From: a phage
Length of the DNA stretch: 40,608 nt
Reading direction: 5' to 3' (one strand)
Sequence record: OZ370878.1
This document shows positions 1 to 40,608 of the stretch, piece by piece (positions within the stretch are counted from its first letter, which is position 1; each line of letters opens with the position of its first letter). A program made the position numbers and the translations under genes. Under the pieces are notes generated by a model that made no database searches, was not told where the DNA came from, and saw nothing but the letters and a program-made list of their open reading frames with translations.

Positions 1-137
1 GTAACACCCAAAGACAAACCCAAGGGTCATCCCCAACCCTTAGGGAACCCTCAAGGTCAACCGAAGGTTGACTTTAGGTGATTGGCTGGGCTTTAGGTAC
101 CCCCTATGGGGGAACTTTAGGTCCGTACACTGTGAGA
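1..137. repeat. Partial copy of T7 160-bp terminal repeat (reverse complement, bases 24-160)
   Basis: Identical to 40319..40455; matches remembered T7 terminal repeat sequence. Confidence 0.9.
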
Positions 138-376
138 TAGTCACTCAGATTTTTATGGTATATTTTAAAGGACCCTATAGGAACTCCATAGGCCCTCTCT
201 AAGACCCTCTTTAGGTGACACTGATAGGATGGCCTATCTTTAGGTATAGACCTTAGGATAGACCATTAGAGGCTCTTTATGGGTATACCTTAGGACTTGA
301 CTCTATAGGGATGAAGTGGTGTGATGCAATCATACCGCTGAATCCCTCGGTGAGCCATCAGTCGGTCAGGAAGACC

Positions 377-2545: not shown

Positions 2546-2566
2546 ATTGCCTCCTTACTTGATTTC

Positions 2567-2998
2567 CTACTTACGTTGCAGTTCACGAATAGTATCCTGT
2601 AACGCACGAATCCATGCGTCACCCTTCTGGGTCACTGCGAGAATACGTTTAGCATCTCGGTCGTCAAGTTCGGCTCGACCATCAGGCTCGAATCCACACT
2701 GACCATCGGAGGTTCCGGTAGTTTTGACTCTGACGCGCAACCGCTTATTGTCGCTACGCAAATCAGAAATAATCCTATCAGTGCTCCCTTCCAGCGCGGC
2801 AAGGTCTTCTTGATACTTAGCAGATACCGCATCGATTGCTCTTTGAGTGCTCTTCGCAGCCTCAACTCTCTTAACGTACTCATTGTGTACCTCCTGTTTC
2901 CATTTAGCGTCCATTGAGTCTGACCCTAGATGCCATCCTAACCCGAATAGCATCCCAGCGAGAACCCAAGGGATTAGCTTACGTAAAAATTCTAGCAT
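2567..2998 (-). CDS. 18.5: T7 gp18.5 Rz-like i-spanin
   Basis: 143-aa ORF with N-terminal TM segment; T7 gp18.5. Confidence 0.9.
   Translation of the reverse strand: MLEFLRKLIPWVLAGMLFGLGWHLGSDSMDAKWKQEVHNEYVKRVEAAKSTQRAIDAVSAKYQEDLAALEGSTDRIISDLRSDNKRLRVRVKTTGTSDGQCGFEPDGRAELDDRDAKRILAVTQKGDAWIRALQDTIRELQRK
2632..2883 (-). CDS. 18.7: T7 gp18.7 Rz1-like o-spanin, nested in 18.5 in another frame
   Basis: 83-aa ORF fully inside gene 18.5; T7 gp18.7. Confidence 0.8.
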   Translation of the reverse strand: MSTLRELRLRRALKEQSMRYLLSIKKTLPRWKGALIGLFLICVATISGCASESKLPEPPMVSVDSSLMVEPNLTTEMLNVFSQ

Positions 2999-3039
2999 AA
3001 TGCCTCCCGTTAACTTTCAGATTTCACGTAGGAGCATCT

Positions 3040-3095
3040 CGTATAGACAATGACATCCATAAAGACCACTATCTGTAGTGGCCTTGAGTATATCA
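3040..3095 (-). promoter_or_regulatory. RNase III processing site R18.5
   Basis: Hairpin motif ACTCAAGGCCACT...GTGGTCTTTATGGATG shared with other T7 R sites. Confidence 0.55.
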
Positions 3096-3362
3096 CTGTA
3101 ATGTGTAAATATCATCATCCGTAAGACCGTTATCACCGACTTTCTCTTTGTACTCTTCAAGAGCACCAGCAAGGCCACCTAAGATGTGAACATCCGGCTG
3201 CAACTTACCAATCTGGAACTTGTGGCGGTCTAACAGTTTGTTAATAGCATTATAGAGTTGCGGAGAGCGACGCTCATGGTCCGAAAGGTCCGCAAGCATA
3301 CGCTGAGCCATCGCAGTGTCCAACATCTCTAAGAATGTAATAAGGCTCTTATCCTTTTCCAT
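3093..3362 (-). CDS. 18: T7 gp18 terminase small subunit
   Basis: 89 aa from MEKDKSLITF...; ORF-track start trimmed to canonical ATG. Confidence 0.92.
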   Translation of the reverse strand: MEKDKSLITFLEMLDTAMAQRMLADLSDHERRSPQLYNAINKLLDRHKFQIGKLQPDVHILGGLAGALEEYKEKVGDNGLTDDDIYTLQ

Positions 3363-3367
3363 ACATA

Positions 3368-3571
3368 TCACTCCTTATTGGCTTTCTTCCAGTCAATCAT
3401 CTTATCGACTACCTTGGCACCAATCTGAACCACTGTGTAGGCGATAGCAGCAACGTAGAACCATTCGTTAAGGCTTAACCCAAAGAACAGTCGAGCACTA
3501 ACATCTGCTACACCCGTCCCAACAATTGGAGCAGCCTTAATCAATTCGTTGTTAAAGTCTAATGATAGCAC
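3368..3571 (-). CDS. 17.5: T7 gp17.5 holin
   Basis: 67-aa ORF with hydrophobic segment; T7 gp17.5. Confidence 0.9.
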   Translation of the reverse strand: MLSLDFNNELIKAAPIVGTGVADVSARLFFGLSLNEWFYVAAIAYTVVQIGAKVVDKMIDWKKANKE

Positions 3572-3629
3572 CTTGTACCTCCTTGAGAGTCCATCCGTGG
3601 ACTACACGTCTTTCCTTGTGATTTACCAA

Positions 3630-5291
3630 TTACTCGTTCTCCACCATGATTGCATTAGGTACAGAACGTCTGTCTGCAATATTCTTGAATCCGAGACCGT
3701 TGGAGTGTATTTGGAATCGTAACCATCCACCATCAGAGGCTATGAAGTAGATTCCATCGGGGCCAGTACGGAAGAAGTTCCAAGAGTTGTTGGCACACTT
3801 AATCCAGATATTGCGGAAGCGGAGATCCTGTGAAACAGTCACACTTACCCCACCGCCAGCACTACCAGACCACACCTGAGTCCACGCCTTGGACTTCGCA
3901 ACGAAGCTGTCACGTAGGTAAGCATCCAGCCATTTACCTCCCCACTTAGTACCTTGAATATTACCATCAGTGGCCACAACGGCCTGACCTACGTGGAAGT
4001 GTTTGTTAACTACTGCATAGTCCTGCTTGAGTGTTAAGGTCGTACCATGTACATAGGAGTGGAAGGTACAGTCATTGTTGTTATCTGACCCTCTACCAAT
4101 GTACCAGTTATTCCTGTTACCATCTTTAGATAGAATATAGTGCGCCTTGTCGGATGCGGACTCTAATTGAAGAACATGCCCATTCTGCAATTTTAGCTGA
4201 CCGGTCATGGCTCCACCTTGGGTGATGATCTGTCCGTTTACTACTAACTGGATGTTACCGCCTATCGCTGTTGTCCACTCTCTACGTTGAACATACATCA
4301 GCCATCCGTTCTCATCTCCCCACTCCATGACAGAGTAACGATTAGTGACACCACCAAAGAACTGTTGATACTGGCCACAGTCAAAACCGTTTGTGGTCAT
4401 GTAAAGGCGCCCGTTAGCGTGAATATTTCCTTTCCAGTACACATTGGTTCCATCTACCTTATCAATTGCACCAGCCAATCCATTGTAATTTTCCAGCTTG
4501 TCTGCCTCACGTTCCGCACGGTCTGCTTGCTGTTCTGCCAAATGAGCAGAGTTAGCGGATGCTGTGGCAGAGTTCTCAGCGTTTACCTCAGATTGATGCG
4601 CAGCGGAAGCAGAGTTCCCAGCAGATGTAGCGTATTGACCAGCCGTATTCTTGAACCGCTTGGCTTCGTCTCGGAAACCCTTGGTCTCATCGCGCCACTG
4701 CTTTGTGTTCGTAGCGTTGGTACTGGACTCGTTCTTAAAGCCCTCCGCTTGGTTTCTGAAAGTCTCAGCCTCATTACGGAACTGTAAGGCTTCATTACGT
4801 GCTTGCCATGAGTTCTGGTTCATGGTCTTTAGTTGACCAAACGGAACAGCATCGCGGTCATCCACGGCGTTCGCTAGGTTCACAATTCGACGACCACGAG
4901 CATCCAAGTGACCATCGTTATTGACACCGATAGTATCCGTAGTGAGGTCACGGGCCTCTTCCGCTACGTGCATCGTTTGAATCTGAGCGACGTTAAGGTC
5001 ATACGCGCGGAGGATTGAACCATCCGTAAAGTCAACCAATCGGTCGGTAGTGGAGGTTACTCGGCGTAACTCGATGGTCGTGTAGCCATCGGCTGGACCC
5101 CAAGCCTTTGTCAGAGAGATAGTAGTACGTGTAGCAAAGCGATAGTCTGTATTAATCGTAAGGACCTTTCGGTCTACACCAATAAGAGTTACCACTACGA
5201 ACTTACGGGCTAGATACTCAAACGGGATATTAAAATCACGATTGGAGCCATCTAACTGGTAAGTCAAAACGGTTTTAATTACGTTAGCCAT
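3630..5291 (-). CDS. 17: T7 gp17 tail fiber
   Basis: 553-aa ORF; matches T7 gp17. Confidence 0.95.
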   Translation of the reverse strand: MANVIKTVLTYQLDGSNRDFNIPFEYLARKFVVVTLIGVDRKVLTINTDYRFATRTTISLTKAWGPADGYTTIELRRVTSTTDRLVDFTDGSILRAYDLNVAQIQTMHVAEEARDLTTDTIGVNNDGHLDARGRRIVNLANAVDDRDAVPFGQLKTMNQNSWQARNEALQFRNEAETFRNQAEGFKNESSTNATNTKQWRDETKGFRDEAKRFKNTAGQYATSAGNSASAAHQSEVNAENSATASANSAHLAEQQADRAEREADKLENYNGLAGAIDKVDGTNVYWKGNIHANGRLYMTTNGFDCGQYQQFFGGVTNRYSVMEWGDENGWLMYVQRREWTTAIGGNIQLVVNGQIITQGGAMTGQLKLQNGHVLQLESASDKAHYILSKDGNRNNWYIGRGSDNNNDCTFHSYVHGTTLTLKQDYAVVNKHFHVGQAVVATDGNIQGTKWGGKWLDAYLRDSFVAKSKAWTQVWSGSAGGGVSVTVSQDLRFRNIWIKCANNSWNFFRTGPDGIYFIASDGGWLRFQIHSNGLGFKNIADRRSVPNAIMVENE

Positions 5292-5343
5292 TTGACCTCC
5301 TTAAAGTAAATCTAAGAGACTACAGGGAGAAGATTATTTCGCC

Positions 5344-5366
5344 TCTCCCTATAGTGAGTCGTATTA
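5344..5366 (-). promoter_or_regulatory. T7 RNAP promoter phi17
   Basis: Reverse complement of TAATACGACTCACTATAGGGAGA; overlaps gene 16 stop. Confidence 0.9.
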
Positions 5367-8300
5367 TTTCCTACGCTCCCTCAAGTTAACACCGTTCGCC
5401 TCATAAATCTTCAACACAAGCTGTTGAGTCAATGGGTCGTTCGGTACTAACTCTTTTGTGGAGTTCATAAGACCAGTCATGAAGTCCTGCTCGGTTGCTT
5501 TATTAGGTGAGTTGACCACGCCAGCAGCATTCATTAAGGTAGCCCCTACGTTAGCCACAAAGCCAGCCGAAGGCATCTGTTCCAGAAGGTTTGAACCCAT
5601 AGCGCCCATTACCTCTCTAGAGGTGTACGGTTTGTTTGGGTCACGTTCCTTCACGGTGTCCTTAGGTAGAATCGTAGAGCGAGCCATCTTGGAGGACTCG
5701 AACCCTAAAACACCACCAACTAGGTCAACCATAGCCAAAGGAGCACCCAATTGAGAACTACGAGATAACGCAGCGTGGGCAATCATGGTTGGGTCCAGTG
5801 CACGCTCCAAGTACTCCTTACGTTTCTCCTTAGGCAGAGCGTATGCTTTGACGTGTGCAGCCATAGCATAGAAACCACCAGCGAGACCCATAGAGGTGAT
5901 GATGCTCAGCGCAGCGTCAATCGCTCGGTTGTTCTTGTATCCATCATAGAAGGTTCGCAGGAACTTAGAGTTAAGGGACTTGATAGTGAAAGACTTAAAC
6001 TGCATAACCATCTTACCTAGTGCTCCGAACGCATGGGAATCCTGTAAGGACACCTTATGTGGACGCAGCATTGCCTCATCAGCTACCTTGTCAGCCAGTC
6101 TCCATAAGTCCATAGCCCGTGGGTCCATAGAGAACGCTTGCTTGTCCTTAACGGTAAACTTCCCGTCCTCACCGCGTACCATATGTTCCTTGATGAGAGA
6201 CTTGATGCCAGCCATCTGCTCAGGAGTTACGGAGGCACCACGAAGGAAGCCTTCTTTCTCCCAGCGGGTAGTCTTACCTGTTAGGGTGGCACTAATAACA
6301 TCCCCAAGCATACCTTGACGCGCAGCATCCAGAAGGTAGTTAGTGGTTCCGTTCAGTAGCTTAGTCCACGGAGAGCGAGCAGCCAGTTCCTGTGTTGAAT
6401 ACTTCAAGGTCCCTACGATGTTCGCCACGGCAGGTCCGGTATCAGTTGCTTCCCTTAGGCGCTGCACAATGTCAGCACGTTTAGGCCGAATCAACTGGTC
6501 CACCTCCTTCCCGAACAGAGACGCATGGAGTTCCTTGAGTTCCTTAGCTGAAACTGGTTTAGACTTGTAGAGTGTATCACGCAGAATTGGGATACTATGC
6601 CCTAGAGCACGAACGTTACCAGTGACAATCATCCCAGCAATCTCCGTAATGTTCTGAGCACCCATGTAGGCGTTCTTAGCGAAGAACCCTAGGTCATTGA
6701 TGGCACGCAGTGAGGTTTCCCACACAGTGTCCTGATTGCGTCTAGCACGACCAGTAAGAATCTTAACGGTATCCATTAAAGCATGTACCTCGCCAGTCTT
6801 CTTACCGTCTCCCTCAGCTTTCGCTTTGAGAGCCAAAATCTCATCCTTAAGTTCCTTAGTGGTTTTACCAGTAGACCCCATGATGGCGATGTCACCATTG
6901 ACACGGCGGTCATACGCTGGCATGATGCGGAACATATCGAAGTCCCTTAGGTCATTCACTGAGAATTGCTGTCCGTCTGGCATAGTGATGGATAGGTCCG
7001 AATCAAACAAGTTACGTGCCTCAAGGAATGAGTTATTCTCGATACCTACTAAGCCCTCAATGTTCTCTTCTATTATGGAACTGTTGGTGAACTGGTCTGA
7101 GTGGGAGATACCATAAGCCTTATCCATAGCGTACTTCTCTACCATCTCTGGTGTTACTTCCTTCACCCCGTGTAATTCCTTAAGCATCTCATCGACTCTG
7201 GCCTTGACCTCAGGTCTGGAGACGTAGCTGTTCATCCATGAGCGGGCAATCCCTTCCTGCAAACCTTCGGCACCGTAGCGTTGAATCATCAGCGCCTTGG
7301 CATGACGGTCATATACGTGAGGAACGTAAGTACCTTTGTGGCGACTCTCAGGGAAGATACTCACAGCCTTTGTGTTACCGAATATTGCTGGGTTTTCCAT
7401 AAGTTCACGCTTGGTGTCAAAGTGACGCTTAATGATGTCCATAACGATTCTCTCAGACGGAGTGAGTGCCTTCTGTAGTTCTGGACGCTCAATAGCTAGT
7501 GCCGCTCTACGGTAGATAGTGTATCGAGTTTCTTCACGGGACATCTTAGCGCCGCCAGTAGAGAACTCAGGGTCTTTCATAGCGTCAGACATTGCTTTGT
7601 ACAAGTCATTATAAGTACGCTGGTCAGTACCATGAAGTCTCTCATGGATGTCAGAAGCTGTTGCACCGAACTTACCTGAGGCACCAGACTGCATACCAGT
7701 AGGAGAGCGAACGAGGTCGATAGCCACTCTACGGATGTCAGCATCGTCAGACCCCAAGGTCTTCAAGCCAATCTCGGTGAACCCAGCCAGTTTGATTCCT
7801 CGCGCAGCCTTCTCAGGGTCAACCTCGGAGAACTCTTTTAGAGTCTTAGGGTTGATTGGGTTGCTTGCACTTAGAACGGAGCCATCATGTAACACCACGG
7901 CACCTCTCTCTGTTGGTAAGTCCTCATAAGGGACACCATTATGTTCACCTTCAAACTTCATGTTCTCAGTGTTCATCCGAGAGAGGTCCGCAGAGTTGGC
8001 GTTTCGTGCTGTCTCACGGGCTTCCAATCGCATCATAGGACCGATGAACTCATTGTCGAACTCAGCTTCTGGTTTACTGCGTTTCAGTCCAGCAGCTACA
8101 GCGTCACTGATTGCAGACATGCCTGCGCCAAACACAAAGCCACCTAAGGCAGCACCCGCATAGTCTGCGTCACCACCAGCTACGGAGGTACGGAGACCTT
8201 CGGATGCAACGTTCAGAGCAGCACTTTCGGCACCAACTACAAGAGCCTTATTGATTAACTTAAAGCCCTTACCAGTGACACCGACCATAGGAACATAGCT

Positions 8301-9320
8301 AAGCGGGTCCACACCAGCACCAATAATACCAGCACTCAGTTTGGCACCTAGGCCAGCCTCGGCAGCGCGGGAGTCATTCTCAAAGTTCTCGTTAGCCAAT
8401 TTAATGAGGTCATCGAGGTTCTCAGGGGAACCACCAGTTACAACGTTGATGTACGCAGGGTTCTTAACCTCTGTTCGAATCTTCTCTAACTCCTCTGGAG
8501 TCCAGATGTGAGAGTTCCAGCGAGTCGGCGTAATGGTGTCTTTAAACACATCAAAACCATTATCGAGACGACCAGCACGGAAAGCCATCCCAGCGACTGA
8601 GTTGGAGAGTTCAGCTTCGGCAGCATTTTTGAATCCGAAGAAGGTTGAACGACTGTTGTACTCGTCAAGTGTTTCTCCGTGGGTCTCCCAAAAGTCCTTG
8701 GCGAATGGTTTCGCCGTAGCCTCCTGTTCGATACCCTTAACGTCAAAACTTGTGGACTCAGGAAGTTCCTGTGTTACTTTCTGCTTGTGACCAATTCCAG
8801 CCAATCCTACCTCAGCCGGAATGCCTTTACCCTTTGGGGTTATGCCACCAAAAGTTTCCAACTGTCCAGCCATAGGTGACTTAGCAACATCCAGAAGGTT
8901 ACGCATGTAGTTACGTCCCTCCTCAGAGATTGATGCGAAGTCTCCCTTAGAGTACGCCTCAAGTTGTGGATTACCCAAGCGTCCCTCGCCTTGGTTGTAC
9001 GCAAGGGCAGCTTTGAGTTCATCGCCATCAAACTTCCCTACCAGACCTGCAAGTTGCTTAGCGGCAGCATTAATAGCTAACTCAGGGTTCAGTCGGTCGT
9101 CGTCTGGACCATCGGTAACTCGCAGACCGAGGGCCTTAGCGGTTGCCTTGGTAAATTGCATCATGCCTAATGGTCCAGTCTTAGATTTTGCTGTAGGCAC
9201 AAATCGTGATTCTGTCCAAGCGACTTTACGTAAAAGGTCATAAGAGACCCCGTTGGCATCAGCAGCCTTTTGGAACAGACCATCATAATCACTTGGTACG
9301 TTCTTATCGTACTTATCCAT
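5364..9320 (-). CDS. 16: T7 gp16 internal virion protein D with N-terminal lytic transglycosylase domain
   Basis: 1318-aa ORF; SLT-like motif GMMQFTKATAKALGL near N-terminus. Confidence 0.95.
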   Translation of the reverse strand: MDKYDKNVPSDYDGLFQKAADANGVSYDLLRKVAWTESRFVPTAKSKTGPLGMMQFTKATAKALGLRVTDGPDDDRLNPELAINAAAKQLAGLVGKFDGDELKAALAYNQGEGRLGNPQLEAYSKGDFASISEEGRNYMRNLLDVAKSPMAGQLETFGGITPKGKGIPAEVGLAGIGHKQKVTQELPESTSFDVKGIEQEATAKPFAKDFWETHGETLDEYNSRSTFFGFKNAAEAELSNSVAGMAFRAGRLDNGFDVFKDTITPTRWNSHIWTPEELEKIRTEVKNPAYINVVTGGSPENLDDLIKLANENFENDSRAAEAGLGAKLSAGIIGAGVDPLSYVPMVGVTGKGFKLINKALVVGAESAALNVASEGLRTSVAGGDADYAGAALGGFVFGAGMSAISDAVAAGLKRSKPEAEFDNEFIGPMMRLEARETARNANSADLSRMNTENMKFEGEHNGVPYEDLPTERGAVVLHDGSVLSASNPINPKTLKEFSEVDPEKAARGIKLAGFTEIGLKTLGSDDADIRRVAIDLVRSPTGMQSGASGKFGATASDIHERLHGTDQRTYNDLYKAMSDAMKDPEFSTGGAKMSREETRYTIYRRAALAIERPELQKALTPSERIVMDIIKRHFDTKRELMENPAIFGNTKAVSIFPESRHKGTYVPHVYDRHAKALMIQRYGAEGLQEGIARSWMNSYVSRPEVKARVDEMLKELHGVKEVTPEMVEKYAMDKAYGISHSDQFTNSSIIEENIEGLVGIENNSFLEARNLFDSDLSITMPDGQQFSVNDLRDFDMFRIMPAYDRRVNGDIAIMGSTGKTTKELKDEILALKAKAEGDGKKTGEVHALMDTVKILTGRARRNQDTVWETSLRAINDLGFFAKNAYMGAQNITEIAGMIVTGNVRALGHSIPILRDTLYKSKPVSAKELKELHASLFGKEVDQLIRPKRADIVQRLREATDTGPAVANIVGTLKYSTQELAARSPWTKLLNGTTNYLLDAARQGMLGDVISATLTGKTTRWEKEGFLRGASVTPEQMAGIKSLIKEHMVRGEDGKFTVKDKQAFSMDPRAMDLWRLADKVADEAMLRPHKVSLQDSHAFGALGKMVMQFKSFTIKSLNSKFLRTFYDGYKNNRAIDAALSIITSMGLAGGFYAMAAHVKAYALPKEKRKEYLERALDPTMIAHAALSRSSQLGAPLAMVDLVGGVLGFESSKMARSTILPKDTVKERDPNKPYTSREVMGAMGSNLLEQMPSAGFVANVGATLMNAAGVVNSPNKATEQDFMTGLMNSTKELVPNDPLTQQLVLKIYEANGVNLRERRK

Positions 9321-9346
9321 TTAGGGCCTCCTTATGTAGCCTTTAG

Positions 9347-11590
9347 TTACTCCTTACGTCCGTAGATGAACTTAGGAGTCTGTTTACGTTTCTCTCGGAC
9401 TCGTTTAGCAGCAGCTTCACGGGCCTTCGTAGCGGCAACTATAGGTGCTCGCTTGTTCACATCAGCCAGAGCCTTCTCACGAGCTTTCTCTTCGAGTTTC
9501 TTCTGGTTCTCACTCCAGACCTTCGAGAGTAACTCTTTGTCGTATCGGACTCTGACTTGACCTGTGGTGTCCATAAGGTAAATGGAGTCACCTTGAGAAT
9601 ACATGGTCAGTTGCTTATTGGTTATCCAAGGGTTGCTCGCAATGATTCCCTTACGTGCTTCCTCCAGAATATCCCGACCTTGCTCCCATGATTTCGGGTC
9701 AGAGTTAACCTGCATCATATTCTTAGGAATCACACCAACGGTATCACCGTCAACATCATCACCAGTGAACGTGTAGGTAGATTCCTTAAGGAACTTGGTC
9801 ATCTGCTCCATAGCCATGCTTTCGTTCCCCGAGCGATACTTAACGGAGTCATAAATCTTACGTGCAGATTCGCGCAGTGACGCTGGCATACGGGCAATCT
9901 CAGGAGCCTTAGATGCATTCAGTGCAGACTCGAATGCTTTATCATCCTCAAAGCGTTGCTCTTTGGACCGCTTAACAGTCAGTCGGTCGGCATCAAGAAT
10001 AACCTGAGGGTCAATACCCTGCTTGTCCATCATGTCCATCGTCAGGAATAGCTCAGCTTGGTCTGGGTATAGCGCAGCAATCAACTGAGGGTCAGCATTG
10101 CGGATTCTGCGCAGAGCATCCATAGCTGGGGTTCGTTCTGGTAACTTACCGTTAATCACAGCGGCAGACCACTCTTGACCAGCGTCAGTGACCATGGTTC
10201 CGATGGCTGTACGGAATGCTCCGTCCTTAGAGTCCGCTTGAAGGTACTTCAACTTCATAGCATCCTTGGCACCGTCTGGAATGTCCATACTGTCAATCTC
10301 AGCGAGCTTCTTATTGGCGTAGTTAACCATATCGCTATGCTTGAACTCACCAGTGTTCTCGTTGACTGGCATATCCTTAAAATCCGTTGAGACCCACTCA
10401 CCGTTGATTCGCTTCTGGAATTGCTTGTCGATTACGTCAAGTTTGTTCATTGACTTCATGGAATCGTCCAGAGCCTTGGCCTGAGCTTTCGTCCATGCGT
10501 TCATCTGATTCTGAACTTGTTCCTGTGCGGAGATTAGCCACTCACGTTGTGGTGTCATCTGCTCATCAGGTTGGACCTTATCTAGTTCAGCCTTGATACC
10601 TTGAAGCATCTCCCAAGCTGTCCTTGGGTCCTCTTGGTTCAGCGCAGAGTTAATCTTCAAGCGATACTGCTCGTTCAGCTTCGCGTCAGTCTCAAACTGA
10701 GAACGTTGTGCTGTGACCATGAGAGCGTTCCACTGTTCCTCACCAATCAACTCTCGGTAAGTCGTAGTGGCTCCGTTAAGTGTTACCTTCTTGTCACCGA
10801 CTCGCATCAGGAAGTCAGCACCACCAGCACGGCTAGAAGCGTCACTGAACGCTTGGCTTATAAGCTGTGTGGCTTGAGCATCAGATGGGATTGCGCCAGT
10901 AACCAGACCGTTGTCGATATACTTCTCAAAGAAGTCAGCAGAGTCTGGACGACGCAGCATATCAGGGTCTTGAAGGACACCGTTGAGTTCCACTCGGCTG
11001 TTCATGATAGCGCCCTTCTGAGCTTGCTGGCTCAAGAAGTTATCATGCGCACCATACAGCGAGATGTTACGCTCGGTAATGTCCCCGTTGAAACCACGCT
11101 GATAATCAACGTCCTCAGGGTCGATGCCGAACTGCTCAGCGTATACCTTAGCGCCCTCTTGAAGGCGACTATGGCGATACTCTTCCATCTCTTCGCGAGT
11201 ACGGAAGACACCCTCTTTTATCTTCTGCATAACGTCATCGTCCACAAGATACGCAGCGTTACGACCAGTCTTGACTCGGAGTGCTTCCATAGCGTATGGG
11301 TCATCCTGATACAGAAGGGTCCCGTTGTTGAGAGCTTCTCGACGTTGCTCAGGGGTCAGCTTACGGATAATCTCGTTAGAGCGTTCATCAGCTAGGTCTC
11401 GTGCTCGTTGTTCCTTAGCGGTATACATATCGGCACCAGCCTTAGCGAACCGACCAATGGTGTCCAATAGGCTTGACCTTGGCTGTTCGGCCTGAGTGGT
11501 TGCTGAACGATAGCCCATACCTCCAGCACCACCACGTAACCGAGAGAGTCCCGGTTGTGCCGCTTGAAGGGCAGATTCAATTTTACTCAT
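9347..11590 (-). CDS. 15: T7 gp15 internal virion protein C
   Basis: 747-aa ORF; matches T7 gp15. Confidence 0.95.
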   Translation of the reverse strand: MSKIESALQAAQPGLSRLRGGAGGMGYRSATTQAEQPRSSLLDTIGRFAKAGADMYTAKEQRARDLADERSNEIIRKLTPEQRREALNNGTLLYQDDPYAMEALRVKTGRNAAYLVDDDVMQKIKEGVFRTREEMEEYRHSRLQEGAKVYAEQFGIDPEDVDYQRGFNGDITERNISLYGAHDNFLSQQAQKGAIMNSRVELNGVLQDPDMLRRPDSADFFEKYIDNGLVTGAIPSDAQATQLISQAFSDASSRAGGADFLMRVGDKKVTLNGATTTYRELIGEEQWNALMVTAQRSQFETDAKLNEQYRLKINSALNQEDPRTAWEMLQGIKAELDKVQPDEQMTPQREWLISAQEQVQNQMNAWTKAQAKALDDSMKSMNKLDVIDKQFQKRINGEWVSTDFKDMPVNENTGEFKHSDMVNYANKKLAEIDSMDIPDGAKDAMKLKYLQADSKDGAFRTAIGTMVTDAGQEWSAAVINGKLPERTPAMDALRRIRNADPQLIAALYPDQAELFLTMDMMDKQGIDPQVILDADRLTVKRSKEQRFEDDKAFESALNASKAPEIARMPASLRESARKIYDSVKYRSGNESMAMEQMTKFLKESTYTFTGDDVDGDTVGVIPKNMMQVNSDPKSWEQGRDILEEARKGIIASNPWITNKQLTMYSQGDSIYLMDTTGQVRVRYDKELLSKVWSENQKKLEEKAREKALADVNKRAPIVAATKAREAAAKRVREKRKQTPKFIYGRKE

Positions 11591-11596
11591 AGCTCA

Positions 11597-12187
11597 TTAC
11601 CTCCCCGTCTTGGTTCCTTTAGCGGCAACAATAGGTGCCTTAGTTGTGGACTTAGAGTCGAACGCACCGGATGCGTAAGCACTCGCAGCGGAAGACCCCA
11701 TGATAGCCAGTGGGTCCAGAACCATCTGTAGCTTACTCTTCTGTTTCTGTTCGCTCTTATAGATTTCGTCAATCTGACTTGCAGCACTTTGAGTACCACC
11801 AAGTTGCTGTGCGAAGATTGCTTGGTAGTCACGGCGATAGTTCTCAGTTACCATATTGGCTTCCCGAATGAACTGTCCTTCTGTGACTCGCTTAATGCGG
11901 TCCATTGAGGAACCTTCAAGCATACTCTCTCCGATAGCCGCTCGGATAGACCCAATAGCTTGGACCTTCTGCATGTTCTGTGAGGTCAACTCGGCGGACG
12001 CTTCCTCAAGTTTACTTCGAGCTTGCAACGATAGGTCAGCATTCTGGATGTTCGTCTGCCTCATGATTTCCATAGCTTGACGACGACCAGCAGCGGTCTG
12101 AGCGGCAATCATTTTGGCCTGAGCGTTCTGACCACTGATAGCCTGAGCGCCAGATATAGCGATAGGTATTGCGGCTGCCCAACACAT
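11597..12187 (-). CDS. 14: T7 gp14 internal virion protein B
   Basis: 196 aa from MCWAAAIPIAISG...; ORF-track start trimmed. Confidence 0.92.
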   Translation of the reverse strand: MCWAAAIPIAISGAQAISGQNAQAKMIAAQTAAGRRQAMEIMRQTNIQNADLSLQARSKLEEASAELTSQNMQKVQAIGSIRAAIGESMLEGSSMDRIKRVTEGQFIREANMVTENYRRDYQAIFAQQLGGTQSAASQIDEIYKSEQKQKSKLQMVLDPLAIMGSSAASAYASGAFDSKSTTKAPIVAAKGTKTGR

Positions 12188-12191
12188 ATGG

Positions 12192-12608
12192 TTATCCTCC
12201 TTTCGTGATTGTAAATAACTGAAATTGACCATCTCGTGTGTACTCTTCATGGAATACCGCACCGATAGTCTTGAGGAAACGAATGTGGGACGTATTGCCT
12301 ACCCATACGTAATTCCAAAGAGTATCATACTTCTCAAGCATCTTATCGCGATACTCCATGATTAACTTACGGAACTTTCGCTTAGCCTTTCCACTAAGTC
12401 GCCACACTTGGTCGCTCGTAACGAACCAGCACTGGTCCCCGCAGTTACCACCGATAGCTAGAGGGAACCCATAGAGACTCAACGTGACACACTCGGAAGC
12501 ATCAGGGAAACTCGGCTCAATACCAGCAGCCTTAGCTTCAAGAATGTCATGGTGAGCCGGAGTGAATACCTCAAAGTCTGTACTTTTAGTAGGTCTTATA
12601 GTCATCAT
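12192..12608 (-). CDS. 13: T7 gp13 internal virion/assembly protein
   Basis: 138-aa ORF; matches T7 gp13. Confidence 0.92.
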   Translation of the reverse strand: MMTIRPTKSTDFEVFTPAHHDILEAKAAGIEPSFPDASECVTLSLYGFPLAIGGNCGDQCWFVTSDQVWRLSGKAKRKFRKLIMEYRDKMLEKYDTLWNYVWVGNTSHIRFLKTIGAVFHEEYTRDGQFQLFTITKGG

Positions 12609-12635
12609 AAGAAAACCCTCCCGTAGTCGTATTGT

Positions 12636-12658
12636 TCTCCCTATAGTGAGTCGTATTA
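12636..12658 (-). promoter_or_regulatory. T7 RNAP promoter phi13
   Basis: Reverse complement of TAATACGACTCACTATAGGGAGA. Confidence 0.9.
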
Positions 12659-12688
12659 ATTTCGAGCCACCACAGGGAGAATATTTAA

Positions 12689-15073
12689 TTAAATACCGGA
12701 ACTTCTCCGTAAGTAGTTACCTTCCCAGCCACACCCAATGATGTTCAGAGGGGTAGTCTCATCTGACAAGATGTATACAGTGTTGAACTTGGCGTTACCA
12801 ACCACAGGGAATCGATATTGTCCGGTCCCTAAGTTCAGTCTCCCAGCCCTCAGAGTGTTAGAGCCTAATCGGGCACCAGCCATTGTGTACTTCCAGTTAG
12901 ACGATTGGTTCTCAACATAAATGTCAAACGTACCAGAGTTCTCGTAGTTAACCCACGCTCGGCGTAACTGTAAGCGCCCAATGTCTTCCGTGGAGGTAGA
13001 CCCGTCGTCGGCAGTCTGCTTGATGAGGAACTTAGAGAACTCATATACGAAGTTAATGTTGAACCCAATGTACACCATGCGTCCCTCCAAGTTACCGCTG
13101 AGTCTCAGCCAAGGGTCGCTATTCCACCCAGCCGTAGGTTGCTCAAACACGGTTATCTTACCATCAGGCTCCAATACAGTAATTTTGCCCCTCCCGAAGT
13201 TTGCACCATAAATTGTTGGAATATGAATAGAGGTAGTGAATGTGTCATCGTTGTATGTTCCACTAGGAATCGTGTATCGAATCTTCATGTCCATAAAGGC
13301 ACGATAGGGTTCTCCCTGTAAGTCAATGGCGTTCTTAGTGAAAGAGATTCTAGCTAGGAACGTATTGAACTCATTGCGAAGAATCACATACATATCTGAG
13401 CTGATACTCTGACAAGCTAGAACCTGTACGTTTTCCCCAAAGTCCCAATGAGACCACGACTGTTGCCTTAACTCTTCGTTCAGGTACGGGAATTTGTACA
13501 TGAAGATTTTACTAGGGTCCCCGTGAGATAGTACCGAACAGAAGTTTTCCGTACCACTTCCGCAAATACTGAACACACCATTAGGGATGTAGTTAGGAAC
13601 GTGTGATGTAATGTCCTCAGCATTCTTAACGGAACTGACATCCTGCACAGCGTAGTACCTGTGGATGGACGTGAAGCTGGACCTCGGACTAGCAAAGTAG
13701 ACATTACGCCCAATCCCAAAAGGTCTCGCTCGGTCCTGTACGTCAAACTGGGTCGTTAGGTTCAACTCAACCGACTTAGATGTGAGAGTACCCGAGGCAG
13801 TCAGGACGAATTGTGCTTCATCGGACCAGATGAGTAACTCTTCTGAGAACGGAACGGCGTACTTAAGGATTGCTATTCGGTTGGTACTCACAGCTACGTC
13901 TATAGGGTCGTCATCACTAAGGTTCGCAATGGACGCAGGGTAGAAGTTGAAGTATTTGGCTGTACGACTCAATATGATGTTCTCCCCACTAAGGAATCCT
14001 AAGCGGTTACGGAAGAAGAACACATCGTTAATACTTGAACCAACAAAAGAAGGCCAAGGGTTGGTGTCAACGTCACCACAAGACTTAGGAGACCACTCAA
14101 GCCACTTGAAGTCGAAATTACCGTCAGCGGCTCGCACAAGAGCGTGTGGCATGGTTTCCCATAGAACTTGGTCCTCAGTGTTCCAACCTAAAGTCTCAGT
14201 CCAAACTTTCCGCTCAGCGTCATACCGAACGTAATACTGGTCGGCAGACTTAGAGGCGTCCCCTACGATTTTCACCATGTAGCCGTTAGGAGCATTAGGT
14301 GGCAGCTTAGAGAACGACTGAGCGTAGTGGGTCACAGGGTTAATCAACTGGTCTGCGTAGCCATCTTTAGTCGTGAAGGAGTCAATCTGTTGACCACTAG
14401 GTGCGGTCACATGGATGAACCCTTGCCCTACATTTACAGTCCAATCAGACAAGTTAGTGCGCATCTGCTTGGCTAACTCTTCAGCTAACCATTGGGCATC
14501 CGTATTGTTTACGTGTTCAGGTTGACTACCATCTGGTATCTTATACTTCGCAACGTCTTTACCGTTAATGTGTACAATTAGTTCCCTACCATACTGACCA
14601 CCACGAACGTTAATCAATCCGTCTTGATTAGGGTTGTAATTCGGTAAGTTGACAGACTTTGTGTTCTTCTGTGCAACAACGTTACGGTTAACGATGAACG
14701 TATAGTCTGCTACAGTAACCATTCGCAGGTCGTTACGTGGATTAGCGGTCTTGATGTAGTTGGAACCGTTAGGATACCTAACTTGCTTCTCGTTACCAGA
14801 AAGGTCGAACACTCGGATTCCGCTACCAGTGAACACAGCGTAATACTGTTCGTGCTCATCTCGGTTAATCAGGTGGATGTACGGAGCTTGACCTAACGCA
14901 CCGTTGTCTCCAAGTGTATTTAAGAAAACAAGAGGTGGACGCTTTTGGAGGCCCTCGGTCTCCGAAGACCAACCGTTAACTTGGCGTGACCCTTGGTCTG
15001 GATAACGAAGGATGTCAGGCTGTTGGCTGATACCACCCTTCAAGTTCTTGATTGATTGGCTAATGAGTGCCAT
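12689..15073 (-). CDS. 12: T7 gp12 tail tubular protein B
   Basis: 794-aa ORF; matches T7 gp12. Confidence 0.95.
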   Translation of the reverse strand: MALISQSIKNLKGGISQQPDILRYPDQGSRQVNGWSSETEGLQKRPPLVFLNTLGDNGALGQAPYIHLINRDEHEQYYAVFTGSGIRVFDLSGNEKQVRYPNGSNYIKTANPRNDLRMVTVADYTFIVNRNVVAQKNTKSVNLPNYNPNQDGLINVRGGQYGRELIVHINGKDVAKYKIPDGSQPEHVNNTDAQWLAEELAKQMRTNLSDWTVNVGQGFIHVTAPSGQQIDSFTTKDGYADQLINPVTHYAQSFSKLPPNAPNGYMVKIVGDASKSADQYYVRYDAERKVWTETLGWNTEDQVLWETMPHALVRAADGNFDFKWLEWSPKSCGDVDTNPWPSFVGSSINDVFFFRNRLGFLSGENIILSRTAKYFNFYPASIANLSDDDPIDVAVSTNRIAILKYAVPFSEELLIWSDEAQFVLTASGTLTSKSVELNLTTQFDVQDRARPFGIGRNVYFASPRSSFTSIHRYYAVQDVSSVKNAEDITSHVPNYIPNGVFSICGSGTENFCSVLSHGDPSKIFMYKFPYLNEELRQQSWSHWDFGENVQVLACQSISSDMYVILRNEFNTFLARISFTKNAIDLQGEPYRAFMDMKIRYTIPSGTYNDDTFTTSIHIPTIYGANFGRGKITVLEPDGKITVFEQPTAGWNSDPWLRLSGNLEGRMVYIGFNINFVYEFSKFLIKQTADDGSTSTEDIGRLQLRRAWVNYENSGTFDIYVENQSSNWKYTMAGARLGSNTLRAGRLNLGTGQYRFPVVGNAKFNTVYILSDETTPLNIIGCGWEGNYLRRSSGI

Positions 15074-15096
15074 TAGAGCCTCCTTATTTATTAATG

Positions 15097-15687
15097 TTAG
15101 CGAGTCAGTAGACCAGAAGTGAACGCATCTCCATCCAGCATATTGTACCCACCGTAGTCCATCTCATACTCCATGCAGAGACGTCTAGCCTCATCTTCCT
15201 CTTCTTGGAGTACACCCTCTACTTCCGGTGCCCCAAAGAATCGGTTGTTGAACTGACGGGAAGCCTTGGTGACAATCCAGTAACGGAAGCACTCAGGCAT
15301 CTCATCGTAGTCGCGGAGACGAATAATGTTCACAGTAATACCAGAGTCAAAGCGGTCTGATTGACTCGTTCGGTCATACACATAGCCACCTCGGTTAACG
15401 TAGATGGATTGACCGGAAGTAGACATTAGGGATAAATAGTCGTCACTGTATACAATCAGGTTGGAGTAAACATCAGGTAGTAGCGTTATGCCTTCCTCAA
15501 TGTTGAACGTCCATCCACGAGATTGAATCTGTCGGTTAATCTTGTTGAGAATACGCCGAGCGTTCGCTGCATCTGCGTTAGCGTCACCTTCCAGCGTTGA
15601 TACCGGAGGTTCACCGATAGACGCCAGAATGTCGTTCACAGCTGATAACTCAGCGGCAGTCTCAACGTTCATATCGTATGAGCGCAT
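15097..15687 (-). CDS. 11: T7 gp11 tail tubular protein A
   Basis: 196-aa ORF; matches T7 gp11. Confidence 0.95.
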
Positions 15688-15702
15688 ATAGTTCCTCCTT
15701 TC

Positions 15703-15752
15703 AGCAAAAAACCCCTCAAGACCCGTTTAGAGGCCCCAAGGGGTTATGCTAG
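15703..15752 (-). terminator. T7 T-phi late terminator
   Basis: Reverse complement of CTAGCATAACCCCTTGGGGCCTCTAAACGGGTCTTGAGGGGTTTTTTG. Confidence 0.92.
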
Positions 15753-15755
15753 TTA

Positions 15756-16453
<698 letters not shown>

Positions 16454-17563
16454 TTATGTAATCCCAGCAGCATTTACGTACTCATGAAGGACCATGTGGT
16501 CACGAGAATTCGGATCCCCGAGCATCACACCTGACTGGAATACGACAGCTCCTGCAGCTTCTGGGCGAAGACCACCGTGGCCCATTGCGTACTTAGCGAT
16601 AATCTGGTCCGCTTGGAAGTTAGCACGGCGAGCGCGCTCCAGAGCCAAGTCACGCAGCTTAACAGTACCTACCGCGGAGCGGTGCATGAACAGGCCGATA
16701 ACGTTGTCCTTAGCAACCTTGACATTACCCTCACCTTTATTGGCAGGGAAGACGTGCTTCTGACCAGTAGTGCCCTCACGAGCGGTACCAGCACCACCAG
16801 CGGTGAGGTGCGGAACTTCTACAACCTCAAAGCCCATAACGTTGCGGATAGAACCCTTCTCAGGGTCAATCAGAGCAGCGTAGTTTGCTGCGTTCGGCAT
16901 CAGTGCTGCCAGAATCGCAGAGTAGCTATCTGGGTCACAGTAGAACACACGGTCAGCAGCCGGAACATAGTTCTTGGTCAGAGCCGCACGAGCCTTAGTC
17001 AGAGCCGCAATAATCTCCTTACCCAGCGCAACTTGGTCGGTAAGTGCGGCCTTGTTCTGAGTGGTCTCAATTACGGTAGCAGTACCTAAGCCCTCGATGT
17101 TCTCATTATATTTGCTTTCCACGTTACACAGACCGGCAATCTCAGCCAGAACCGCACCATCCGCAGCCATCGCCAGAGATTCACCCAACTGAGAGGTATA
17201 CTCAGAGCGAACGTCGTAGTGGTTCATCGCGTCCTCAATATCATAAATCAGAACGTCAGCCGTCAGGAGACCGTCAATGGTGATTACCTTCTCGGTGTGT
17301 TTGATGTCCTTACGTTTATCGTCGAGGTTCTCGCCCGGAGCCAGATACGCTGCCTGAGTGCGACCCAGAACAGGGAACTGAGCGGATTTACCGCTGGAGA
17401 TGGAACGTACCATGTGGCGAGAAGTGGTCACGGAGGTACGAGCGAACGCAGTCAGGACTTCACCGCCAAATACCTTCAAGAACAACGCCAGTTTATCTCC
17501 AGCAGCAACTACACCTTTACCTTGGTTAGTACCCATTTGCTGTCCACCAGTCATGCTAGCCAT
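16454..17563 (-). CDS. 10: T7 major capsid protein gp10 (residues 1-348, read-through form) fused to GFP11 tag
   Basis: 369-aa ORF MASMTGGQQMG...AAGAVVFQSGVMLG-DPNS-RDHMVLHEYVNAAGIT then TAATAA. Confidence 0.97.
   Translation of the reverse strand: MASMTGGQQMGTNQGKGVVAAGDKLALFLKVFGGEVLTAFARTSVTTSRHMVRSISSGKSAQFPVLGRTQAAYLAPGENLDDKRKDIKHTEKVITIDGLLTADVLIYDIEDAMNHYDVRSEYTSQLGESLAMAADGAVLAEIAGLCNVESKYNENIEGLGTATVIETTQNKAALTDQVALGKEIIAALTKARAALTKNYVPAADRVFYCDPDSYSAILAALMPNAANYAALIDPEKGSIRNVMGFEVVEVPHLTAGGAGTAREGTTGQKHVFPANKGEGNVKVAKDNVIGLFMHRSAVGTVKLRDLALERARRANFQADQIIAKYAMGHGGLRPEAAGAVVFQSGVMLGDPNSRDHMVLHEYVNAAGIT
16457..16504 (-). other. GFP11: GFP11 (M3) tag coding segment, 16 codons RDHMVLHEYVNAAGIT
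   Basis: C-terminal 16 aa of the gp10 fusion match the GFP strand-11 complementation peptide. Confidence 0.95.
16505..16516 (-). other. Cloning scar GGATCCGAATTC (BamHI/EcoRI) encoding DPNS linker
   Basis: Adjacent restriction sites directly after gp10 codon 348. Confidence 0.85.
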
Positions 17564-17620
17564 ATGTATATCTCCTTCTTAAAGTTAAACAAAATTATTT
17601 CTAGAGGGAAACCGTTGTGG
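17564..17620 (-). promoter_or_regulatory. Gene 10 leader and ribosome binding site
   Basis: GGGAGACCACAACGGTTTCCCTCTAGAAATAATTTTGTTTAACTTTAAGAAGGAGATATACAT ATG. Confidence 0.9.
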
Positions 17621-17643
17621 TCTCCCTATAGTGAGTCGTATTA
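17621..17643 (-). promoter_or_regulatory. T7 RNAP promoter phi10
   Basis: Reverse complement of TAATACGACTCACTATAGGGAGA. Confidence 0.93.
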
Positions 17644-17656
17644 ATTTCGAAGTCTA

Positions 17657-18580
17657 TCAGAAGTTCGAATCGATTACTTTCTGTTCGACTTGACGACGAT
17701 AGTTGGCATCTGTGCGATACCGAGGGTCACTCATAGCTTTAATCATCTCGCTACGGTCCGCAAAGCCTTCACGCTTGGTAGCCTGAGGTTTAGCCGGAAT
17801 AGCACGATTAGTCACACTACGAGTTGGCTTACGACCGAACGCCTTAGCGCGAGACTCACCAGCCAAGTTGATGATAGCCTTAACGGTCGCTAAGTCACGA
17901 CTGGTCAACGCATTATCCAGCGACTGTGCAGCCTCAGGGTTGTGCGTCTCAAGGTGGTTATACAGTGCATCAAAACGTTCACGACCACCAGCGTACTCAA
18001 TGACACTGTTTACGTACTGCTCCACCAGAGCTTCTTGACCACGGATATACGAGTCAATGAAAGCCTTCGTGTAGCCAATTTCAGCCAGCTTAGCGTAGGA
18101 CTCGGCGGACAACTCTTCGTTCTCCTCGTACTCACGCTGGGTAGCCTCAATGGTCTCGACACTCATGCCACGCTCAGCAGCAATGTTAATCATCTCTTGG
18201 AAGCCCTCTTCGTGCTCACCAAGTTGCTCAGAGGCAGCTACCAGTTCTTCTGGAGTCTCGCCCAGTGGGGTAAACTCTTCGGAACCTTCGGTGCCCTCAA
18301 CGCCTTCTTCTCCAGTGTCCACATCGGTCGGCTCAGAGCCATCACCGATACGAACCTGAATGCGGCCTTCGTCATCCTCTTGACCGAACGGGTCAGAGTT
18401 GTCATACAGGTCACGTTCTGTTTCCACTTCGTCTGACGCTAACTCGATTGCATCATCGCCATCACGGGCAGCAACATCAAGAGCCAGCATGTTCTGCTCA
18501 TGTTCCTCAACGGAACCACCAGACATCACAGCGGAGTTCACGCCAAAAGATGCATATACGTCTGCATTAGATTCAGCCAT
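17657..18580 (-). CDS. 9: T7 gp9 scaffolding protein
   Basis: 307-aa acidic ORF; matches T7 gp9. Confidence 0.95.
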   Translation of the reverse strand: MAESNADVYASFGVNSAVMSGGSVEEHEQNMLALDVAARDGDDAIELASDEVETERDLYDNSDPFGQEDDEGRIQVRIGDGSEPTDVDTGEEGVEGTEGSEEFTPLGETPEELVAASEQLGEHEEGFQEMINIAAERGMSVETIEATQREYEENEELSAESYAKLAEIGYTKAFIDSYIRGQEALVEQYVNSVIEYAGGRERFDALYNHLETHNPEAAQSLDNALTSRDLATVKAIINLAGESRAKAFGRKPTRSVTNRAIPAKPQATKREGFADRSEMIKAMSDPRYRTDANYRRQVEQKVIDSNF

Positions 18581-18659
18581 TATTATTGTCTCCTTAAAGT
18601 TGAACTACAGGAAGACCGAGGACTCCAACCTCTTGTCATCGCTCATTTCAAAGATGAGG

Positions 18660-18682
18660 TCTCCCTATAGTGAGTCGTATTA
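18660..18682 (-). promoter_or_regulatory. T7 RNAP promoter phi9
   Basis: Reverse complement of TAATACGACTCACTATAGGGAGA; overlaps gene 8 stop. Confidence 0.9.
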
Positions 18683-30673: not shown

Positions 30674-31372
30674 TTAGAAGTCTCCGTCTTCGTCTGCTTC
30701 CTCGGACTCTTCGTCGTCTTCGTCCCAGCTTTCTTCGTCGCGTGGTTTGCTCGCTTTGGCAGAACCAGAGGCAACATAGCCGTTCTCTTCAACTTCGTCA
30801 GCCCAATCGTCTTCACCGCCACCAAAGGTAGCCAGTTCGACCAGCATCACGGATTCCAGTTGCAGCTTAACGCTCGCACCTACAGCAGTGTTCCACTTGT
30901 ATGGAACCAGAGAATATTTAACTTTCAGCTTAGAGCCACCACCGATAATCGGAACGTCTTCCATCTTCTTACCTTTTGAGTCAACCACAACCAGATTGAT
31001 GTGCTTGGTCTCTTTGGTCTTCTTGTCTTGGAAAGACGCGTAGCATTTGAACTTAAAGGTAGTCGTACCGTCACCGTTATCGAAGAACGGCATGTCACCC
31101 TCATACGGTTTCAGCGGTTTCTTACCACGAGCTACAGCAGGTGGATTAGCTTCGTATTCCTCAACGGCAGCAGCATAAGCCTCTTCGTGACACTTCACGA
31201 TTTCATCGACCATACGCTGGCAGCGCGGGTCTTTGTTGGGAATAGTCAGGTCAACTTTATAGACACCACGAGGGTTCCCAAAGCCACGCTCTTCGTTGCC
31301 GTAGTCCGGCTTGGCGATGTAAGCGTAAGGTTCAGCGGTACCCAGCGCAGAGGTGAAAATCTTCTTAGCCAT
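30674..31372 (-). CDS. 2.5: T7 gp2.5 ssDNA-binding protein
   Basis: 232-aa ORF with acidic C-terminal tail ending DGDF. Confidence 0.96.
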   Translation of the reverse strand: MAKKIFTSALGTAEPYAYIAKPDYGNEERGFGNPRGVYKVDLTIPNKDPRCQRMVDEIVKCHEEAYAAAVEEYEANPPAVARGKKPLKPYEGDMPFFDNGDGTTTFKFKCYASFQDKKTKETKHINLVVVDSKGKKMEDVPIIGGGSKLKVKYSLVPYKWNTAVGASVKLQLESVMLVELATFGGGEDDWADEVEENGYVASGSAKASKPRDEESWDEDDEESEEADEDGDF

Positions 31373-31415
31373 AATGTTAATCTCCTTTAGGTTTCGTTTG
31401 GTTTCTCAGAGGGAG

Positions 31416-31437
31416 TCTTCCCTAATAGTGAGTCGTA

Positions 31438-31440
<3 letters not shown>
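31416..31440 (-). promoter_or_regulatory. T7 RNAP promoter phi2.5
   Basis: Reverse complement of TAATACGACTCACTATTAGGGAAGA. Confidence 0.85.
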
Positions 31441-31773
<333 letters not shown>

Positions 31774-31781
<8 letters not shown>

Positions 31782-32364
31782 AACATTTATCCTTATGTTT
31801 CTCAAAGAGTTCTTTATAGAAGTCTGCTTTCGCTAGGTCTTTCTCTAAGTACGCTAACTCTGACTTCTTACCAGCACGTAGTCTGTACTTTAAGATGTTA
31901 CCGAAGCAGTATCCCTTGAACTGCTCAACGGTCATTGAACGAGCAATCACTTCGATAGCCTCAATGTCGTCAAACAGCATGTAGTGGGAAGGCTTAGTGA
32001 CACCTTCGATTGTCTCAGCGGAAGGCTGGTCATCTGTAGGAGTTACCTCAGGTTTATTCAGATGTGGTTTACGTGGGTCCATCGCTCGGATTTCACCTAA
32101 GGTTATCTTTTGATCGTTATTTGCGGGGCAGAGGTGGCAAGGGACATTGGAGCAGAGAATACCGCAGCCATTCAAATCATCTGGGCGACCTTCATTATTG
32201 TCTATCAACTTAATGATCATCTCTTGTTCACGTTCGGTCATATCGTTAGCTCCTTTGTTACAGGTGTGTGGATAACGGTCATCTTTCTCTAAGCAAGCTA
32301 TACACCCAGTTGCTTGTACTGGCGGGTTTTCTTTTTCCCAGGCTTCACCATCTAACAGTCCCAT
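31774..32364 (-). CDS. 1.7: T7 gp1.7 nucleotide kinase
   Basis: 196-aa ORF; matches T7 gp1.7. Confidence 0.93.
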
Positions 32365-32624: not shown

Positions 32625-32629
32625 ATAGT

Positions 32630-32652
32630 GTCTCCTTTAGTGAGTCGTATTA
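32630..32652 (-). promoter_or_regulatory. T7 RNAP promoter phi1.6
   Basis: Reverse complement of TAATACGACTCACTAAAGGAGAC. Confidence 0.85.
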
Positions 32653-32739: not shown

Positions 32740-32746
32740 GGTGTGT

Positions 32747-32922: not shown

Positions 32923-32934
32923 AAAGTGTCTCCT

Positions 32935-32968: not shown

Positions 32969-32975
32969 AGTGTGA

Positions 32976-34393: not shown

Positions 34394-34394
34394 C

Positions 34395-34600: not shown

Positions 34601-34627
34601 GTTCTCCTATAGTGAGTCGTATTGATT
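34601..34627 (-). promoter_or_regulatory. Single hybrid T7 RNAP promoter phi1.1A/phi1.1B
   Basis: CGCCAAATCAATACGACTCACTATAGGAGAACCTTAAGG: phi1.1A upstream flank joined to phi1.1B downstream flank. Confidence 0.8.
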
Positions 34628-40295: not shown

Positions 40296-40455
40296 AGGGA
40301 CACAGAGAGACACTCAAGGTAACACCCAAAGACAAACCCAAGGGTCATCCCCAACCCTTAGGGAACCCTCAAGGTCAACCGAAGGTTGACTTTAGGTGAT
40401 TGGCTGGGCTTTAGGTACCCCCTATGGGGGAACTTTAGGTCCGTACACTGTGAGA
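40296..40455. repeat. Full 160-bp T7 terminal repeat (reverse complement)
   Basis: AGGGACACAGAGAGACACTCAAGG...GGTCCGTACACTGTGAGA; its last 137 bp equal window 1..137. Confidence 0.9.
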
Positions 40456-40608
40456 TAGTCACTCAGATTTTTATGGTATATTTTAAAGGACCCTATAGGA
40501 ACTCCATAGGCCCTCTCTAAGACCCTCTTTAGGTGACACTGATAGGATGGCCTATCTTTAGGTATAGACCTTAGGATAGACCATTAGAGGCTCTTTATGG
40601 GTATACCT
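40456..40608. repeat. Wrap-around duplicate of window 138..290 (right-end unique DNA of the next genome unit)
   Basis: Exact identity of 1..290 with 40319..40608. Confidence 0.9.

Follow-up and report, generated by a model that had tools for sequence, protein, structure and literature searches.

The gene 10 junction described here is real, synthetic and already known: it is a laboratory design from 1996, carried by a published engineered phage. The reading that we favor, with a probability of about 0.97, is that the 3' end of gene 10 of an otherwise wild-type phage T7 was rewritten by design in the T7Select manner and joined to GFP11 and GFP1-10, and that the phage is T7-Split-S*. The window, by which we mean the whole 40,608-nt stretch of DNA that was analysed, is to be treated as a synthetic construct whose features are not to be taken for natural biology: engineering accounts for the lost recoding signal, the GFP genes and the added restriction sites alike. 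The features on which the argument draws are as follows.

17626..17640, minus strand: core of the T7 phi10 promoter, found by a promoter-core scan within an unbroken wild-type region (T7 5907-24013); phi10 is annotated at T7 22904.
16454..17563, minus strand: fusion ORF of gene 10, 369 aa long and taken from the ORF list, made up of gp10 residues 1-348, DPNS, GFP11 and a stop.
16552..16557, minus strand: PstI site CTGCAG, made by the recoding; one in the genome, none in wild-type T7.
16517..16555, minus strand: recoded block of 13 codons, AGAVVFQSGVMLG, with the changed bases at 16553..16520.
16537..16543, minus strand: site of the natural heptamer for the -1 shift, near codon 341, which is G GTT TTC in the wild type and C GTA TTC in the window, where the run of T is interrupted.
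16506..16517, minus strand: BamHI (GGATCC) and EcoRI (GAATTC) sites belonging to the T7Select junction, where they encode G-DPNS; neither is present in wild-type T7.
16457..16504, minus strand: GFP11 tag, RDHMVLHEYVNAAGIT; TAATAA comes next, at 16456..16451.
16416..16450, minus strand: translation leader of the pET/gene-10 type, whose Shine-Dalgarno sequence, AAGGAG, is at 16428..16423.
16401..16415, minus strand: ATA GGT GGC ACT AGT, the MGGTS leader of GFP1-10 with ATA for ATG (G>A at 16413).
15756..16400, minus strand: GFP1-10 ORF of 214 aa, from the ORF list (Pfam GFP), ending ...DPNEK at GFP residue 214.
15705..15752, minus strand: T7 terminator Tphi, with wild-type sequence around it; the native 10B stop (15755..15753) comes before it, gene 11 begins at 15687, and the alignment with T7 resumes at T7 24155.

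The 369-aa ORF (17563..16454) belongs to the major capsid family of the T7 type (Pfam Gp10A-like, E = 8e-115). Its first 348 residues, that is, the 10A body and the first seven residues of the 10B extension, are identical to the conceptual wild-type gp10B and also to the product of MZ318361. The 13 codons at 16555..16517, GCA GGA GCT GTC GTA TTC CAG TCA GGT GTG ATG CTC GGG, encode AGAVVF-QSGVMLG in a single frame on the minus strand, letter for letter as the original prediction had it. In wild-type T7 (V01146) the counterpart of the block is GCTGGTGCAGTGGTTTTCAAAGTGGAGTAATGCTGGGG, where the shift site GGTTTTC and the stop of 10A are both still present; the letters at the position of the block are GGTTTTCAAAGTGGAGTAA. 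Read in the zero frame, V01146 23972-24012, with the letters GCT GCT GGT GCA GTG GTT TTC AAA GTG GAG TAA TGC TGG GG, gives AAGAVVFKVE-stop, the end of 10A. With the C of TTC read twice, the same sequence gives AAGAVVFQSGVMLG and runs on as far as 24162, where the 10B stop is annotated, making a product of 398 aa; 10B is annotated in V01146 as two pieces. The prediction held that wild-type 10A ends VVFKVE-stop and that QSGVMLG is reached only through a -1 shift, and the V01146 sequence and its two-piece annotation agree with it. The alignment with wild-type gene 10 that it proposed as a check finds that the wild type is not identical here. Removal of the shift site and of the 10A stop, also claimed, is borne out: GGTTTTC is found once in wild-type gene 10 and not at all in gene 10 of the window, the heptamer now reads CGTATTC, the former TAA of 10A is altered and out of frame, and there is no stop in frame. 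The zero frame stays open for 27 more codons past the shift position; for slips past the site, the -1 frame closes within 15 codons and the +1 frame within 6.

How far does the block depart from what ordinary divergence would produce? Set against the conceptual 10B reading, the window departs at 12 of 42 nt, always synonymously; ten of these changes fall on the third base of a codon, and two more come from a complete exchange of the Ser codon AGT for TCA. Outside the block there are 16 substitutions relative to V01146 in 39,676 aligned nt, and in the 1005 nt of gene 10 ahead of the block there is one difference. At the genome-wide divergence, a stretch of 42 nt should contain about 0.017 differences, and the Poisson probability of at least 12 is about 1e-30. 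The block is also longer than its wild-type counterpart, at 42 versus 41 nt, the net gain being the C that is read a second time in a slip. Here the original prediction was right about the synonymous changes but mistaken in supposing that the loss of a base had fixed the 10B frame: because a ribosome that slips by -1 uses one base twice, a hard-wired frame needs one extra base, not one fewer.

The programmed -1 ribosomal frameshift in T7 gene 10 (10A/10B) was reportedly described by Condron, Atkins and Gesteland in 1991, and 3' stimulatory sequences are said to have been reported for it by Condron et al. in NAR in 1991. GGTTTTC is the natural gene 10 shift sequence (PMC1635266, figure 1 legend), and about 10% of wild-type T7 ribosomes enter the -1 frame there to make 10B (PMC1635266, PMC8365609). 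The design starts from this natural arrangement, in which roughly one ribosome in ten slips by -1 on G GUU UUC and bypasses the 10A stop four codons on, yielding the longer gp10B. In the window, codons 337-348 are resynthesised, the slippery heptamer being broken by GTT -> GTA together with flanking wobble changes, and the base that a slip would read a second time is written out twice, bringing QSGVMLG into the zero frame and leaving the 10A stop out of frame. There are unique PstI, BamHI and EcoRI sites, the last 50 residues of 10B are deleted, and GFP11 is joined after G348-DPNS. One capsid species would then replace the 9:1 mixture of 10A and 10B, and each of the 415 subunits would bear a DPNS-GFP11 tail of 21 residues. 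GFP1-10, encoded on the same phi10 transcript ahead of Tphi, would complement the tag to give fluorescent capsids. That all 415 subunits would be tagged, in a single capsid species, we infer from the sequence and the published design, by analogy with the T7Select415 series; it is the continuous frame in place of the frameshift that would put the tag, GFP11 of split GFP, on every subunit.

The junction carries a split-GFP cassette, a link that the original prediction did not draw. From the shift site to Tphi, the DNA of the window is an insert in place of native sequence; the insert replaces T7 24014-24154/24159, and with it the last 50 residues of 10B are lost. The peptide RDHMVLHEYVNAAGIT, found in 33 papers, is GFP beta-strand 11 (PMC7079041), and it is present exactly, in all 16 aa, at the C-terminus of the capsid ORF after G348-DPNS. 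Superfolder-GFP chains align with the 214-aa ORF over residues 1-214 (E about 1e-142); this match and its end at residue 214 identify the ORF as GFP1-10. Since the promoter-core scan finds no other T7 promoter in the stretch from phi10 to phi13, the capsid transcript carries GFP1-10 as its second cistron; co-transcription with the capsid gene predicts co-expression of the two. Binding of GFP1-10 to the capsid tag, with fluorescence as the outcome, would follow from the design and is in keeping with the published account (PMC12808745). Exact-sequence look-ups returned no match for the capsid fusion or for GFP1-10, with or without the MGGTS leader, and the GFP part of the window is not covered by any phage record in the collection searched.

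The start of the second cistron deserves comment. The GFP1-10 template, ATGGGTGGCACTAG / GGTGGCACTAGTATGAGC, begins ATG GGT GGC ACT AGT and continues ATG AGC, as given by primers YU1390 and YU944 (PMC7714769). The ATA codon of the window (16415..16413) lies at the canonical 7-nt spacing from AAGGAG and differs from the start of the template by a single G>A. The first ATG of GFP1-10 (16400) is 22 nt from the Shine-Dalgarno sequence, and a weak AGGTGG lies 7 nt upstream of it. ATA at the upstream start would probably lower the output of GFP1-10. The change at 16413 may be a matter of design, a mutation or a read error.

The remainder of the window is T7. After reverse complementation it aligns to T7 1-5848, 5907-24013 and 24155-39914 at 99.9% identity. 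Judged by its sequence, the window holds a complete engineered T7 genome, in reverse complement and with a circular permutation. It starts at T7 39625, inside the right end, and reads through one copy of the 160-bp terminal repeat; window positions 1..290 and 40319..40608 are exact duplicates of 290 nt (T7 39625-39914). The duplication and the permuted start are in keeping with a long-read assembly made from concatemeric or circularised DNA, and not with true linear genome ends. T7 579-2717 and 11163-11515 are present unbroken, so that both deletions of T7Select415-1b are absent; absent too is the T7Select-lineage SNP at T7 22925. Sequence of the T7Select type is restricted to the recoded block and two restriction sites.

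Where, then, does the block come from? A query of 60 nt, spanning the recoded block and both cloning sites, was searched against 50,697 phage records, and it matches only three: MZ318361 at 60/60 nt, and MZ318362 and MZ318363 at 98.3%. All three derive from T7Select415-1b (PMC8365609), which is T7 lacking 579-2717 and 11163-11515 and bearing a multiple cloning site where gene 10 ends (PMC8365609). A 39-mer exact-match search found nothing in IMG/VR or in GTDB (one genome per species, 185,579 species). The 39-mer GCAGGAGCTGTCGTATTCCAGTCAGGTGTGATGCTCGGG is thus a compact marker of T7Select-derived capsid engineering (3 of 50,697 phage records, none in IMG/VR or GTDB genomes). The original prediction had called the sequence T7Select-style, and this is correct for the junction, with its 60/60 nt in MZ318361, but not for the vector genome, as T7Select-type sequence comes to only about 50 nt. 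According to the T7Select manual, reportedly, the frameshift site was removed on purpose, leaving a single capsid form. In the T7Select literature searched, no statement was found on the shift site of the vector itself, and a literature text search for GGUUUUC gave no match. In the Novagen helper plasmid p5403, restoring GGTTTTC took three mutations (PMC1635266), so gene 10 of p5403 must also be without the natural site.

What other explanations might account for the rewritten end of gene 10? One might think that the whole window is simply the commercial T7Select415-1b vector genome with an insert, as the gene 10 junction is the same as that of the vector through the EcoRI site. This reading is refuted, however, by the presence of T7 579-2717 and 11163-11515; in addition the lineage SNP at T7 22925 is missing, as are the polylinker from SacI to XhoI and TAACTAGTTAACCCC, in place of which the wild-type CTAGCATAACCCC is found. 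We consider it very improbable. Smaller still is the likelihood of a natural or laboratory-evolved variant in which mutation has fused the 10A and 10B frames. T7 does tolerate altered 10A:10B ratios (PMC8365609, introduction), and insertion of one base could in principle join the frames. Such an origin would nevertheless have to supply 12 clustered and purely synonymous changes, for which P is about 1e-30, among them a three-base exchange of one Ser codon for another, as well as three new unique restriction sites with GFP sequences directly after them. IMG/VR and the GTDB genomes hold no exact match, and the identity with a commercial vector sequence refutes this origin.

Could the recoded block be an artefact of long-read sequencing or assembly? 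The genome was assembled from nanopore reads, and the window does carry an end duplication of 290 nt of the kind that assembly produces. Random errors would not give an exact 60-nt vendor sequence, though, nor would they keep the frame and every amino acid, and we give this explanation the same negligible weight as mutational fusion. The T7Select backbone, natural variation and sequencing artefact have all been rejected as the source of the block.

The preferred reading, a designed junction in otherwise wild-type T7, leads to a published phage. T7-Split-S* was built by PHEIGES from a wild-type T7 parent and has gfp11 on gene 10B, RBS-gfp1-10 downstream and the tail-fibre change S541R (PMC12808745). 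It was nanopore-sequenced and deposited as OZ370880, and fluorescent capsids were reported (Levrier et al. 2025, Nat Commun, PMC12808745). In gene 17 of the window, at positions 3669 and 3663, we find S541R (AGT>AGA) and a silent change at S543 (TCA>TCT), a pair that, among the other phage records, is common only to PP384396, PP384400, PP384407 and PP384408, the PHEIGES 'rfaC' / 'T7_compile' genomes. A whole-genome comparison with one of these, PP384400, gives as lineage markers common to both 1896 insA, gp9 N227S and S541R with the silent S543; gp12 G784E is in PP384400 and not in the window. The genome of the window matches T7-Split-S* of Levrier et al. 2025, and from these features we infer its identity to OZ370880. 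S541R is an engineered host-range change for hosts with truncated LPS, and the silent S543 change is a linked marker.

The window also carries changes of its own. Thirteen substitutions are private to it relative to both V01146 and PP384400; 12 are transitions, and 8 are missense and 5 silent. Examples, by window position, are 19545 (gp8 C249Y), 18141 (gp9 I147T), 13488 (gp12 L529P), 11506 (gp15 A29S), 6596 (gp16 G909S), 39359 (gp0.3 A58V), 37552 (gp0.7 R295W) and 35994 (gp1 M431V). They would fit with genome fragments built by PCR or with mutations acquired on passage. A 75-bp deletion at window 34607..34623 (T7 about 5849-5923) has fused phi1.1A and phi1.1B through their common core, leaving one promoter. 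It is found neither in wild-type T7 nor in the laboratory-lineage genome PP384400; because PP384400 does not have it, the deletion does not come from the parental lineage. A scan of phage records for the deletion gave two pieces in 25 of the 25 matches listed, with records that have and that do not have the 75 bp ranking equally. Recombination could have produced the deletion, or mis-annealing at the PHEIGES fragment junction 'downstream of gene 1'.

The stability of such constructs is of practical interest. Recoding of Ser344 from AGT to TCA has a consequence, in that AGT cannot reach a stop codon in one step and TCA can. S344stop (C>A) arose in passaged T7Select415 derivatives (PMC8365609), and it is because of this change that MZ318362 and MZ318363 match the 60-nt query at 98.3%. 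In the window the codon (16534..16532, minus strand) is TCA and intact. Users of phages of this kind should bear in mind that TCA at Ser344 is one step from a stop and has mutated to one on passage (PMC8365609). Might the ATG->ATA change of GFP1-10 and the phi1.1A/B fusion be adaptive mutations selected in propagation, and not choices of design or errors of PCR or nanopore sequencing? We regard this as an unlikely but not fanciful proposal. If it were true, the selection would reflect the cost of GFP11/GFP1-10 loading on all 415 capsid subunits, and the case would parallel that of S344stop, which arose inside the same recoded block.

It is instructive to set the window beside the systems from which it draws. 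Wild-type T7 gene 10 shares with it the protein through 10B residue 348, as well as its promoter, its RBS and the initial 1005 nt of the gene save for one silent SNP. Three things found in the wild type are missing from the window: the heptamer GGTTTTC, the stop in the zero frame and the final 50 residues of 10B. In the window the 10B extension does not depend on recoding, and in wild-type T7 it does.

The gene 10 display junction of T7Select415-1b is reportedly that of Rosenberg et al. 1996. This vector (Novagen/Merck) has the same recoded codons 337-348 and the same BamHI-EcoRI sites as the window, at 60/60 nt by way of MZ318361, and in both there is one continuous frame of the 10B type, cut at residue 348. 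The T7Select415 series displays a short peptide on every subunit, with a quoted limit of 50 aa, and the tag of the window is well below that limit. The two differ in their backbones, the vector having its two deletions and the window being T7 of wild-type length without them. They differ again past the EcoRI site, where the polylinker of the vector (SacI-SalI-HindIII-NotI-XhoI) is missing from the window; Tphi is approached through TAACTAGTTAACCCC in the vector and through the wild-type CTAGCATAACCCC in the window. Unlike the vector, the window keeps the native 10B stop and the Tphi context, and it has GFP1-10 as a second cistron between the capsid gene and Tphi.

The p10-EYFP helper plasmid (Slootweg et al., NAR 2006, PMC1635266) concerns the same site in the same gene, likewise in T7 display and with fluorescent capsids. 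The operation was the opposite one, however: GGTTTTC was restored, so that fewer than 1% of subunits carried EYFP, whereas the window abolishes the site. From split GFP the window takes the exact 16-aa GFP11 and a detector of 214 aa ending at residue 214. It departs from that system in carrying both halves in one phage operon, and in that the Shine-Dalgarno-proximal start of the detector is ATA, not ATG. Last comes T7-Split-S*. The legend to its figure 2E (PMC12808745) places GFP11 at the 'N-terminus', whereas in the window the tag (16457..16504) is C-terminal, after residue 348; both have gp10B-GFP11, RBS-gfp1-10 downstream and gp17 S541R, both go back to wild-type T7, and both were assembled from long reads.
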